Virus record (IMG/VR): IMGVR_UViG_3300021375_000006
Origin: a virus
Taxonomy: Duplodnaviria; Caudoviricetes
Length of the DNA stretch: 64,000 nt
Direction: 5' to 3' (one strand)
Part shown: in pieces, positions 10,061-12,390 of the stretch
How positions within the stretch are numbered: the first letter of the stretch is position 1
How the letters are laid out: every line of letters begins with the position of its first letter
Translations under genes and position numbers: made by a program
The notes under the pieces: model-generated
The model's input: the letters and a program-made list of their open reading frames with translations, nothing else
What the model was told of the DNA's origin: nothing
Databases searched by the model: none

Positions 10061-10075
10061 AAATATCTATTTTAG

Positions 10076-10150
10076 TCGGGGTGGCAGGATTCGAACCTGC
10101 GGCCTCCACGTCCCAAACGTGGCGCGATAACCGGGCTACGCTACACCCCG
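10076..10150 (-). tRNA. tRNA-Pro(TGG)
   Basis: Cloverleaf CGGGGTG...CCACG-TTTGGGA-CGTGG...GGTTCGAATCC...CACCCCGA. No encoded CCA. Confidence 0.95.
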
Positions 10151-10552: not shown

Positions 10553-10611
10553 GTCTTCATTACTTTATGTAATATTTATGTGTTATAGATAAAATCTGTG
10601 AATAGTTTCAC

Positions 10612-10690
10612 GGTAGTCAAGGAGAGACTTGAACTCTCATGTAACCAATTACTCTTTCAACAAGGTATAAGCTTGAGGAGATACTTGACT
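10612..10690 (-). ncRNA. non-canonical D-armless tRNA-like RNA with a TAT (Ile) anticodon loop
   Basis: 7-bp acceptor AGTCAAG/CTTGACT, T arm GAGAG-TTCAAGT-CTCTC, anticodon arm CAAG-CTTATAC-CTTG. No D arm, but an extra GTAA-TTGG-TTAC hairpin before the T arm. Confidence 0.7.
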
Positions 10691-10695
10691 ATGTG

Positions 10696-10769
10696 CGGTC
10701 TGGACGGGATTCGAACCCGCGACCCCATGCGTGACAGGCATGTATTCTAACCAGCTGAACTACCAGACC
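10696..10769 (-). tRNA. tRNA-Asp(GTC)
   Basis: GGTCTGG...CATGC-CTGTCAC-GCATG...GGTTCGAATCC...CCAGACCG. Confidence 0.95.
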
Positions 10770-10784
10770 ATAATAATATGTTTA

Positions 10785-10859
10785 CTCCACTTGGACTCTC
10801 CTTTCGGTTGTAGGCGTGAGATTTGACGCCTCGTTGTTCGGCTTTCGCCTATCCAAGAG
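10785..10859 (-). ncRNA. compact four-way-junction structured RNA candidate
   Basis: Closing stem CTTGGA/TCCAAG around hairpins GGC-GAAA-GCC, AGGCGT-N8-ACGCCT and CC-GAAA-GG. Confidence 0.55.
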
Positions 10860-10860
10860 C

Positions 10861-10976
10861 GGGGGAGTAGGGGATTCGAACCCCTACTTCTGCCTAACCA
10901 ACTTAATCACATCGCGTAACTAGTATGATGCTTTCAGTCTTAAGGTTGGAGCGTCGTACCGTTTGACTAACTCCCC
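10861..10976 (-). ncRNA. tRNA-like RNA (116 nt) with an enlarged anticodon domain / possible 35-nt intron
   Basis: Acceptor GGGGAGT/ACTCCCC, D arm GTC-AAACGGTAC-GAC, T arm AGGGG-TTCGAAT-CCCCT. Stem CCAAC/GTTGG encloses 42 nt instead of 7. Confidence 0.7.
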
Positions 10977-10984
10977 ATATTTAG

Positions 10985-11058
10985 TGAACCAGACAGGATT
11001 CGAACCTGTGACCGTCTGCTTAGAAGGCAGATGCTCTATCCAGCTGAGCTACTGGTCC
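10985..11058 (-). tRNA. tRNA-Arg(TCT)
   Basis: GGACCAG...TCTGC-CTTCTAA-GCAGA...GGTTCGAATCC...CTGGTTCA. Confidence 0.95.
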
Positions 11059-11063
11059 ATAAG

Positions 11064-11154
11064 AAAGAGAGGCTTCGGGTCTTTCGGGGTTACTACTATA
11101 TAGAAGCTAACCCTTGCTTTTATCCATATAAGTGTAGCTTCACTACCTCTCTTT
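11064..11154 (-). ncRNA. structured intergenic RNA candidate between tRNA-Leu and tRNA-Arg
   Basis: 9-bp closing stem AAAGAGAGG/CCTCTCTTT and a 7-bp inner stem GAAGCTA/TAGCTTC. Confidence 0.45.
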
Positions 11155-11157
11155 TAG

Positions 11158-11243
11158 TACCGCTGGGCGGGCTCGAACCGCCACGGACATTACTGTCCAA
11201 GGGATTTTAAGTCCCTCGTGTCTACCAATTCCACCACAGCGGC
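11158..11243 (-). tRNA. tRNA-Leu(TAA)
   Basis: GCCGCTG...AGGGA-CTTAAAA-TCCCT, long variable arm GGACAG-TAA-TGTCC, T arm, A discriminator. Confidence 0.95.
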
Positions 11244-11292
11244 ATTTGGTACTAAATCTAGATGTCAAAGAGCTTTGTTGCTAATTACAGTA

Positions 11293-11325
11293 CTAATATA
11301 CGAAAAATAATTGACAACTAAAAAT
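11293..11325 (-). promoter_or_regulatory. early/host-type promoter (Bacteroidota -7 box TATATTAG with upstream TGTCA) driving the tRNA array
   Basis: TTGTCAATTATTTTTCGTATATTAGTAC. Near-identical copies at 13086, 13200 and 36206. Confidence 0.65.
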
Positions 11326-11349: not shown

Positions 11350-12390
11350 TTATGAAATTAAGTGTGGTTTGGCTTCTGCTAGTCCTGCGTTTGTAACTAC
11401 ATTATATTCTGCTCGATTAAAATATTCAAGTAGATCATTAGCTCCAGCGTATGAGAATGCTGATTTGATTCCATCGGTTAGTCCATTGATAATAAACCTA
11501 GCGCCACCTTTAAATGGAATTGTAGTAGACTCGCCTTCAACATTACGTTGCTTTTGAGCGTGTGTAATTTTAGTCTCTAAAGATGCAGAACCACGATAAC
11601 GTTTGAAAAGACCTGCTGGAGTTTCAAGAATGGCTCCTGGCGACTCCTTTGTACCTGCTAATAGTGAACCAACCATTACACAATCGGCACCCACTGCGAG
11701 CGCTTTTGCAATGTCTCCGGATGATTTAATACCACCGTCTGCCATGATGGGAATTCCAGCAGAATCTGCAACTTTAAATACATCTTCAATTGAGGTTACA
11801 TTAGGTACACCGAAACCGGTCTTAATACGAGTGGTACAAAGAGAACCTCCCCCAATACCAACTCGTAGACCATCAGCTCCCCAAGCAATCAGATCTTCTG
11901 CTGCTTCTGCCGTTGCGATATTACCGGCAATAACATCTGTAAACTCTTCCAGATTTGCCTTCAATTCAGCTAGAGCGACTTCCATATTGCCATGGTGGCC
12001 ATGCGCAACATCAACGAGTATGATATTACAACCTGCTTCTTCAAGTGCGACAGCGCGGTCCAGGTAGTCTCCTACGACGCCCACTGCTGCCATGATAGGT
12101 AGATGTGAAAGTACAATATCACTGTCTCTAAAAGCTACTAGTTTTTTAACCTGTGCTACTTGCTCTTCGATAGACATAAACCTATGAATACAGCCAACTC
12201 CACCCATTTCCATCAGTGTTGCTGCCATTTCATACTCAGTTACTGTGTCCATACATGAACCTACAATTGGAATATCAATTGACCAGTTTCTACTAACATT
12301 AACTGCTAGTGAGATATTCTGGCGTGTTGGGATGTCAGAAAAGTTAGGGATGAGTTGAATATCATCGTACGTTAGTGCTTGCTTTCGCAT
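11350..12390 (-). CDS. IMP dehydrogenase / GMP reductase family (no CBS domains)
   Basis: MDTVTE, DVAHGH, VIAGNIAT, GIGGGSLCTTR, IMADGGIKSSGDIAKALAVGADCVMVGSLLAGTKESPG. Confidence 0.9.
   Translation of the reverse strand: MRKQALTYDDIQLIPNFSDIPTRQNISLAVNVSRNWSIDIPIVGSCMDTVTEYEMAATLMEMGGVGCIHRFMSIEEQVAQVKKLVAFRDSDIVLSHLPIMAAVGVVGDYLDRAVALEEAGCNIILVDVAHGHHGNMEVALAELKANLEEFTDVIAGNIATAEAAEDLIAWGADGLRVGIGGGSLCTTRIKTGFGVPNVTSIEDVFKVADSAGIPIMADGGIKSSGDIAKALAVGADCVMVGSLLAGTKESPGAILETPAGLFKRYRGSASLETKITHAQKQRNVEGESTTIPFKGGARFIINGLTDGIKSAFSYAGANDLLEYFNRAEYNVVTNAGLAEAKPHLIS

Follow-up and report, generated by a model that had tools for sequence, protein, structure and literature searches.

Within a 64,000-nt stretch of viral DNA from the IMG/VR record IMGVR_UViG_3300021375_000006 (Duplodnaviria; Caudoviricetes), referred to below as the window, a run of tRNA genes includes a 116-nt element, X, which has the body of a tRNA and no anticodon and is followed directly by a second RNA, the 77-nt domain Y. 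An earlier sequence-only reading had left X between two explanations: a tRNA with a short protein-spliced intron, or a tRNA-shaped RNA that is not spliced. We consider it likely that X mimics a tRNA without decoding and forms the first module of a phage RNA in two parts, X-Y, which stays unspliced, would be handled by tRNA enzymes and would dimerise through the tip of a long arm. The parts of this proposal are not equally firm: that X belongs to a bipartite X-Y RNA is highly likely, and it is very likely a tRNA mimic, conserved and anticodon-less, whose arm is structured, while its processing and dimerisation are claimed with more reserve below. No description of the X-Y pair was found in Rfam or in the literature searched, which included work on phage tRNA-like RNAs, theta ribozymes, tRNA mimics together with CCA enzymes, and rnaC/rnaD; among tRNA-like non-coding RNAs, a kind already known, X-Y forms a new family.

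The tRNA core, the long arm and the adjoining domain

Read on the minus strand, X is covered from end to end by the Rfam tRNA model RF00005, with 41.6 bits against a gathering score of 29 (E-value 2e-5 for the whole window) and with 58 nt inserted in place of 13 anticodon-arm positions. In this alignment all the nucleotides of the tRNA elbow are kept: U8, A14, G18 G19, T54 psi55 C56 and A58. The acceptor stem, D arm and T arm recognised in the sequence-only reading are thus present, and the discriminator is C, as it had stated, at position 10861; CCA is not encoded. ARAGORN did not call X in a default run on the window. The same program finds no transfer-messenger RNA (tmRNA) there. A tmRNA is marked by a tRNA-like domain lacking the D stem, a G3-U70 pair, pseudoknots and a tag reading frame; X has a D stem, a G3-C70 third acceptor pair, a length of 116 nt and no reading frame.

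Relatives of X were sought through the neighbouring GMP reductase gene, through short DNA patterns and, above all, through the invariant core of Y, the last search running over IMG/VR and marine metagenomes. A covariance model, R1, built from 11 sequences with the long-arm structure described below, recovers 81 copies of X, 71 of them distinct, at 39.6–139.6 bits; ordinary tRNAs in the same loci reach at most 38 bits. All copies come from viral and marine metagenome contigs. A BLAST comparison of X, Y and 20 kb of the window with GenBank phages returned ordinary tRNA similarity and no homologue, and the nearest related record (G001) is without the X region. The family splits into several subfamilies whose acceptor stems, D stems and arms differ widely. 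Across the 71 distinct sequences the acceptor, D and T helices covary: in the family alignment A3, whose pair counts are inflated by its having been fitted to the model structure, compensatory changes occur at four of the seven acceptor pairs and covariation at three of the four D-arm pairs. In subfamilies C and D (e.g. L039, L043, L047 and L130), A-A, A-C, U-C and U-U mismatches recur at acceptor positions 3–5, and positions 1, 6 and 7 are invariant.

Single-sequence minimum free energy (MFE) folding of X is unexceptional (z −1.34) and inconsistent between homologues, and the structure was therefore taken from comparative analysis. The region of the normal anticodon stem-loop proves to be an arm of at least 17 base pairs. 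In A1, a MAFFT alignment made independently of the structure from 11 sequences only, 93.6% of the cells of the arm are paired, against 42–52% in slid controls; in the model-fitted A3, with the inflation just mentioned, the corresponding figures are 91.6% and 44–51%, with compensatory change at 28 of 33 pairs. The raw sequences of distant subfamilies agree with the arm, and thermodynamic folding with the tip hexamer held unpaired gives exactly this structure.

Taken from the core outwards, the arm begins with a proximal stem that shows both-sided changes at all eight pairs (91.8% paired in A3) and that, elsewhere in the family, runs as a continuous helix, of 8–10 bp in most subfamilies. A bulge of 4–5 nt comes next and is kept in every subfamily; it is mostly U-rich and ends in A or AA (UUAA, UAUA, UCUA, UCAA), and in L031, L035 and L122 a whole extra hairpin or a three-way junction stands at its site. 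The middle stem covaries at each of its four pairs (GACU/AGUU, GGCC/GGCU, GAUU/AAUC, GGUU/AAUC; 96.7% paired in A3). It leads to an internal loop that reads ..AGUA facing GAA(A) or GGAA in most members and, as a variant of this, AUUA in the window; by its sequence and orientation, the loop of most members is a probable sarcin-ricin or loop E (bulged-G) motif. For the distal stem, A1 shows covariation from C-G to U-A together with G-U variants, and A3 (79.8% paired) shows both-sided changes at five of five pairs.

These results divide the pairings drawn in the sequence-only reading. That of GCATC with GATGT within the insert is real and covaries. A second one, of TTAA with TTAA, finds no support, the first UUAA being the conserved 4-nt bulge. 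The stem CCAAC/GTTGG, which was to close a 42-nt loop, can be drawn in the window and is paired in 51.6% of cells across the family (A3, an alignment biased towards the long arm by its fit), which is the level of chance. The 11 close relatives fit this register and that of the long arm about equally; only the wider family separates the two, and its covariation favours the long arm.

Domain Y starts at the base after the discriminator of X and follows X in 82 of 82 unique X-Y units, all recovered through the Y core sequence. Near relatives of X that were found independently of Y also have it, apart from the L024/L029/L032 group. Among 42 distinct sequences Y has 54 invariant positions, whereas X diverges freely. 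It folds into three hairpins within one closing helix: a variable hairpin, an invariant one with the loop CAAAUCUC and a short, covarying one, P4, capped by GAAA. The closing helix P1 covaries through UUGGA/UCCAA, UUAGA/UCUAA and UUAAA/UUUAA with G-U intermediates, and P2 covaries too. The proteins that neighbour X-Y are only 30–97% identical across phages, yet the 54 bases of Y do not change; such strong constraint is unusual, and it suggests that Y is catalytic or has a precisely fitting molecular partner. Y may be the functional core of X-Y, possibly as a ribozyme or an aptamer.

No Rfam family matches Y at E-values up to 1, and its core has no match in 50,697 GenBank phage records or in 185,579 prokaryotic species genomes. 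Mapping by eye of hepatitis delta virus (HDV)-like, hammerhead, hatchet and twister-sister ribozymes on to Y gave no convincing fit. Mutual information between the columns of X and Y holds phylogenetic signal only, with no covariation beyond shared ancestry. Two contacts between the modules can be drawn as speculation: the GAAA loop of P4 might dock on the UAA bulge of X as a tetraloop on its receptor, and the GUGGAG tail of Y might pair with the 3′ acceptor strand of X.

Table 1. Features of X, of Y and of their surroundings (window positions unless a locus is named)
Feature	Position	Strand	Sequence or description	Basis or support
X	10861..10976	minus	116-nt tRNA-shaped RNA without anticodon	RF00005 full-length match; covariance model R1
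X acceptor stem	10970..10976 with 10862-10868	minus	GGGGAGU (5′ strand) pairs ACUCCCC	94.2% of cells paired in family
X D arm	10953..10967	minus	GUCA / AACGGUA / CGAC, with A14, G18 G19, A21	aligned to RF00005 D arm
X long arm	10890..10951	minus	62 nt	comparative pairing; constrained folding
Proximal stem of arm	10944..10951 with 10890-10899	minus	CU-CC-AACC pairs GGUU-A-GG-C-AG; two single-base bulges	
Bulge, 5′ strand of arm	10940..10943	minus	UUAA, 4 nt	
Middle stem of arm	10936..10939 with 10900-10903	minus	GACU pairs AGUU	
Internal loop of arm	10904..10908 opposite 10932-10935	minus	GAUUA opposite GAAA	
Distal hairpin of arm	10909..10931	minus	stem GCAUC/GAUGU; 13-nt apical loop 10914-10926	
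Tip hexamer	10919..10924	minus	ACUAGU, self-complementary	
X variable loop	10886-10889	minus	AAGU, 4 nt	
X T arm	10869..10885	minus	AGGGG / UUCGAAU / CCCCU	99.7% paired; 4/5 pairs covary
Y	10784-10860	minus	77-nt four-way-junction RNA	
GMP reductase gene	11350-12390		minus-strand tRNA run lies downstream	PF00478 at 4e-102
tRNA-Leu(UAA)	11157-11243	minus	genuine, long variable arm	ARAGORN and Rfam
tRNA-Arg(UCU)	10984-11058	minus	7 nt upstream of X	ARAGORN and Rfam
tRNA-Asp(GUC)	10695-10769	minus		ARAGORN
tRNA-Pro(UGG)	10075-10150	minus		ARAGORN
tRNA nucleotidyltransferase gene	L055, 3193-3918	plus	compact 241-aa phage enzyme; PolyA_pol head and RNA-binding domain	25 other loci alike

The tip, the ends and the insert

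The apical loop of the arm holds a perfect 6-nt palindrome in 68 of 70 distinct members, and the palindrome is one of five kinds: ACUAGU, that of the window, in 30 distinct sequences, GCUAGC in 29, and UGAUCA, GAUAUC and GAGCUC in 3 each. A random hexamer has a chance of 1 in 64 of being a palindrome. AU usually stands directly 5′ of the hexamer, and the other positions of the apical loop vary freely. The tip of L080 is GCUAGU, which pairs with itself via G-U pairs, and L058 has the palindrome in two loops. In L075 (2273-2416, minus strand), a divergent X whose arm is a multi-hairpin junction, two mutually complementary loops, UCGCGU and ACGCGA, replace the single palindrome. Because switches between hexamer types need paired substitutions, selection for loop-loop pairing is the simplest reading, and dimerisation of X by a kissing-loop contact of its tips appears probable, if by a narrow measure.

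All five hexamers are also classic DNA palindromes, and the tip may instead act in DNA, where a dimeric regulator or nuclease would bind it, RNA dimerisation then playing no part. This we regard as improbable. A site for a protein should hold its sequence constant and not switch among five unrelated palindromes, and in every case the hexamer occupies the unpaired tip of a covarying helix. The variant in L080, self-complementary only via G-U pairs, which are present in RNA and not in DNA, and the complementary loops of L075, which take the place of a palindrome, both speak for an explanation at the level of RNA rather than DNA.

As to the ends of X, a gene for a 241-aa tRNA nucleotidyltransferase directly adjoins X-Y in 26 loci (PF01743 at 8e-18; PHROG 24229 at 3.7e-63), and no other tRNA gene is present in these loci; in the related record G003, a gene for a CCA-type enzyme comes after the tRNA cluster that contains X. 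This neighbourhood suggests that X undergoes tRNA-like maturation and receives CCA. Handling of X by tRNA end-processing and CCA-adding enzymes is, in our estimate, reasonably probable.

A matured and CCA-tailed X might also be aminoacylated and deliver its amino acid outside decoding, through a transferase, or enter the ribosome like tmRNA. The intact elbow and acceptor/T-arm minihelix would suit such a role, as would the nucleotidyltransferase gene of the 26 loci; nevertheless we find it quite improbable. There is no conserved acceptor identity element, positions 2–5 varying freely, no G3-U70 pair and no long variable arm, and the discriminator varies among A, C and G. The family has no tag-like reading frame, and no SmpB-type partner was noticed beside X, although no dedicated search for one was made. 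The long arm, moreover, would be expected to clash with the decoding site.

An intron was the other explanation offered in the sequence-only reading: X would be a tRNA gene for Leu-UAA or Ile-UAU with a short intron, excised by an endonuclease and a ligase of phage or host. The tRNA core is indeed intact, a 7-nt loop that is formally acceptable results when 35 nt are taken out of the window sequence, and ARAGORN with introns allowed (-i) calls tRNA-Ile(tat) with a 35-nt intron on X. The arithmetic of the excision proposed earlier, which was to restore the loop CU-UAA-GA (Leu), is correct, but its register is not unique: ARAGORN takes another 35 nt and obtains Ile-UAU, and several registers give a 7-nt loop because UUAA flanks the insert on both sides. 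Leu identity is implausible, given that X has a 4-nt variable loop and not a long variable arm and that a genuine tRNA-Leu(UAA) lies 180 nt upstream in the same cluster, which would make a second one redundant; relatives also have tRNA-Ile(UAU).

The family leaves the intron explanation very little room, and we take it to be highly unlikely. No anticodon is conserved: ARAGORN calls none of the 70 distinct members in default mode and, with introns allowed, proposes at least 16 different anticodons, including those for Lys, Arg, Ile, Phe, Ser, Val, Tyr, Trp, Thr, Pro, Asn, Glu, Cys and stop. Even among close homologues the implied anticodon changes (Ile, Val, Trp, Tyr, Phe, Lys, Arg and others), and U33 is not conserved in near relatives, L023 reading UAUAAG there. 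Since the proximal stem runs continuously for 8–10 bp in most subfamilies, there is no one piece whose removal would give back a 5-bp stem and a 7-nt loop. The apical and internal loops are better conserved than the supposed exon loop, unlike what is seen in protein-spliced introns. Among 2.9 million viral contigs of IMG/VR, the tRNA body of X does not occur with a normal D-to-T spacing (14–44 nt) and occurs in 13 contigs with a spacing of 55–85 nt. Contigs from RNA libraries (three RNA-seq runs from two studies) span tRNA-Arg, X and Y unspliced, with no joint over the insert; this is weak evidence, since contigs may stem from DNA and lose rare forms, and stretches that lacked cover were left out of account.

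Neither RtcB (PF01139) nor the splicing endonuclease tRNA_int_endo (PF01974), both suggested earlier as things to look for, was found in the related phage records G001–G004, a weak negative at their completeness of 12–76%. A bulge-helix-bulge consists of two 3-nt bulges on opposite strands around a 4-bp helix at the exon-intron borders. In X the strand order is reversed, with a 4-nt bulge on the 5′ strand followed by a 4x5 internal loop, and the earlier remark that the junction is not a clean bulge-helix-bulge was well founded: the bulges lie on the wrong strands for that motif. A group I intron needs the catalytic core P3-P9 and usually exceeds 200 nt; the insert, with 35–60 nt and no match to an Rfam intron family, is too short for one, as had also been remarked. 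Of the two explanations offered at first, the protein-spliced intron tRNA fails on an unconserved anticodon and the want of an intron-less copy in IMG/VR, and the non-spliced tRNA-shaped RNA is supported by family covariation and the absence of a conserved anticodon.

That X might be a decaying, functionless tRNA pseudogene whose anticodon arm was broken by inserted sequence, for instance the scar that a mobile element leaves behind, is scarcely credible, even though phage tRNA clusters host homing endonucleases (e.g. T4 segB) and some members have acceptor-stem mismatches, since compensatory changes maintain every helix in the 81 copies from diverse phages, the tip hexamer switches only among self-complementary forms, X stands alone outside tRNA clusters in many phages, and it stays joined to the highly conserved Y.

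Several points weigh against our own proposal, that of an unspliced, tip-dimerising tRNA mimic in a two-part RNA. The mid-acceptor mismatches of the distant subfamilies are odd for a substrate of tRNA enzymes. The MFE folding result gives the structure no help, and of the two alignments that do, A3 overstates its pairs and A1 is small. Binding of a dimeric protein to the DNA would account for the palindrome equally well. The RNA-library contigs possibly derive from carried-over DNA, may have dropped rare spliced forms and do not show ends or strand. The nucleotidyltransferase is seen in the loci of relatives.

With these reservations, the proposed course of events would be as follows. X-Y would be transcribed together with the tRNA cluster in the window phage and alone in other phages. 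The tRNA-like core of X would recruit RNase P for the 5′ end, a cut at the discriminator would free X from Y, and CCA would be added by a host enzyme or by the neighbouring phage tRNA nucleotidyltransferase. Two X molecules would then be joined by a 6-bp kissing-loop contact of their tip hexamers, and X would be neither spliced nor used in decoding. Our first guess would be that X gives Y a handle for processing and stability, that it offers a tRNA-binding protein a scaffold or sponge with two ends, or that it does both. A bolder version, which we put forward as a doubtful one, makes X-Y a phage RNA device of a new class: Y, being catalytic or binding a ligand or protein, would set the 3′ end of X by self-cleavage or as a mimic of an RNase P substrate, the phage nucleotidyltransferase would add CCA, and the tip-paired rod of X would bridge or trap a pair of identical host tRNA-binding machines (for example ribosomes, synthetases or tRNA-directed defence nucleases). 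X-Y might then be the marine-phage counterpart of the T4 stable RNAs RNAC and RNAD, unsolved after 50 years.

The tRNA cluster and the gene neighbourhood

The window belongs to a large myovirus, its G+C content being about 35%, and encodes a tail sheath, a large terminase, a major head protein, a portal, a ribonucleotide reductase and a DNA polymerase; a type IX secretion signal domain in one of the proteins points to a host from the Bacteroidota. In the order of transcription, the tRNA cluster reads Leu-UAA, Arg-UCU, X, Asp-GUC, Pro-UGG. In the subfamily of the window X-Y always comes after tRNA-Leu(UAA) and tRNA-Arg(UCU), an arrangement seen in 11 related loci, and in other subfamilies X-Y is the sole tRNA-like gene of its locus. 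Such stand-alone copies are flanked by a UvdE gene and a 96-aa open reading frame (ORF) on one side and by conserved ORFs of 100 aa and about 330 aa on the other. In G002, a 181-kb record, X is distant from the five other tRNAs.

A scan of the window tRNA cluster for sigma-70 promoters and terminators was uninformative. Upstream of stand-alone copies of X, TATAA(A/T) is found at a distance of 7–11 nt in 30 of 46 cases, within sequence that is AT-rich; its resemblance to a T4-type late promoter is only a hint.

The cluster and its relatives hold further structured elements. At 10614-10690 (minus strand) lies a second odd tRNA-like element, with acceptor-like strands AGUCAAG/CUUGACU, a T arm GAGAG-UUCAAGU-CUCUC and no normal D arm. 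It is kept in the closest relatives (e.g. L001), where tRNA-Asp is missing and the element follows Y after a short spacer. Between tRNA-Leu and tRNA-Arg, at 11064-11154 (minus strand), there is a structured spacer of 91 nt with a closing stem AGAGAGG/CCUCUCU and competing inner pairings; the closest relatives, of the L001 type, are without it and have a 10-nt gap, and L006, L019 and L021 have 60–180 nt there. A relative with 27 tRNA genes, L020, carries at 7510-7615 (minus strand) another tRNA-like gene of about 104 nt that does not belong to the X family. Two additional hairpins, one of them with the loop AGUACA, separate its anticodon region from its T arm, and ARAGORN -i miscalls it as Ser(aga) with an intron.

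In the RNA runs X17 and X18, very deep contigs at window positions 10600-11300 match the ordinary tRNAs Asp, Arg and Leu, and one joint in them links 10639 to 11217 via 29 foreign letters. These tRNA-matching contigs most likely come from tRNAs of other organisms and not from the phage of the window.

Significance and comparison with known systems

X-Y is widespread in large marine myoviruses, and tRNA finders that allow introns will mislabel its genes as intron-containing tRNAs with arbitrary anticodons, corrupting inferences about codon supply and recoding in phages. A tRNA core bearing an arm with a probable loop E motif and a self-pairing tip would be a natural design for RNA-only dimers, and self-assembly is an emerging theme among ornate RNAs linked to phages.

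With intron-containing tRNAs of archaea and eukaryotes, and with bacterial tRNAs that carry group I introns, X shares extra sequence in the anticodon region. Unlike them, it lacks a conserved anticodon, a bulge-helix-bulge and an intron-less homologue, and its insert is conserved and structured.

Other likenesses are the TMERs of murine gammaherpesvirus 68 (MHV68) and the MALAT1-mascRNA pair, in which a non-decoding tRNA-like module lies beside a second RNA, is separated from it by tRNA enzymes and can receive CCA uncharged. These are herpesviral or eukaryotic and have no counterpart of the long arm of X, which would dimerise, and for X-Y such processing is a proposal.

For the tip, a likeness is the dimerisation initiation site (DIS/SL1) of HIV-1, a 6-nt self-complementary sequence in an apical loop above an internal loop, whose compensatory variants keep self-complementarity. 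X has a similar palindromic tip kept by compensatory change, with the hairpin grafted on a tRNA core. The two complementary loops of L075 resemble the loop-loop assembly of the packaging RNA (pRNA) of phi29; X has no link to genome packaging.

Theta ribozymes, which are minimal HDV-like ribozymes, are located downstream of tRNAs in phages (Kienbeck et al. 2024, PMC10879173). Like Y, they are small conserved RNAs at, or a few nucleotides from, the 3′ end of a phage tRNA-type gene, and both could create that end. The folds differ: a theta ribozyme is a nested double pseudoknot (P1-P1.1-P2-P3-P4) that has a catalytic C in J4/2 and cleaves itself at its 5′ end, and Y consists of three hairpins in one closing helix, with no Rfam ribozyme match at the threshold given above.

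In the tRNA cluster of T4, itself a large myovirus, tRNA-Arg(UCU) is followed directly by two small stable non-coding RNAs, namely RNAD, or species 2, of 119 nt and RNAC, or species 1, of 139 nt, as tRNA-Arg(UCU) is followed by X and Y in the window. A T arm and a tRNA-like closing stem are present in RNAC, as they are in X. Both T4 species are late RNAs (PMC9697503), and their roles are still unsolved (PMC3014915). Architectures, folds and lengths differ from those of X-Y, no sequence similarity was found, and R1 does not score rnaD at all and reaches 13.9 bits on rnaC, over its T arm only. The 119 nt annotated for RNAD finish with ACC and are followed in the genome by A; a CCA end is thus encoded there, whereas X encodes none. 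RNAC and RNAD are best seen as the nearest analogues of X-Y, in position and in kind, and not as demonstrated homologues. Beside the T4 order of tRNA-Arg, RNAD and RNAC, X-Y thus offers a second and sequence-rich system in which to approach the old question of phage stable RNAs.

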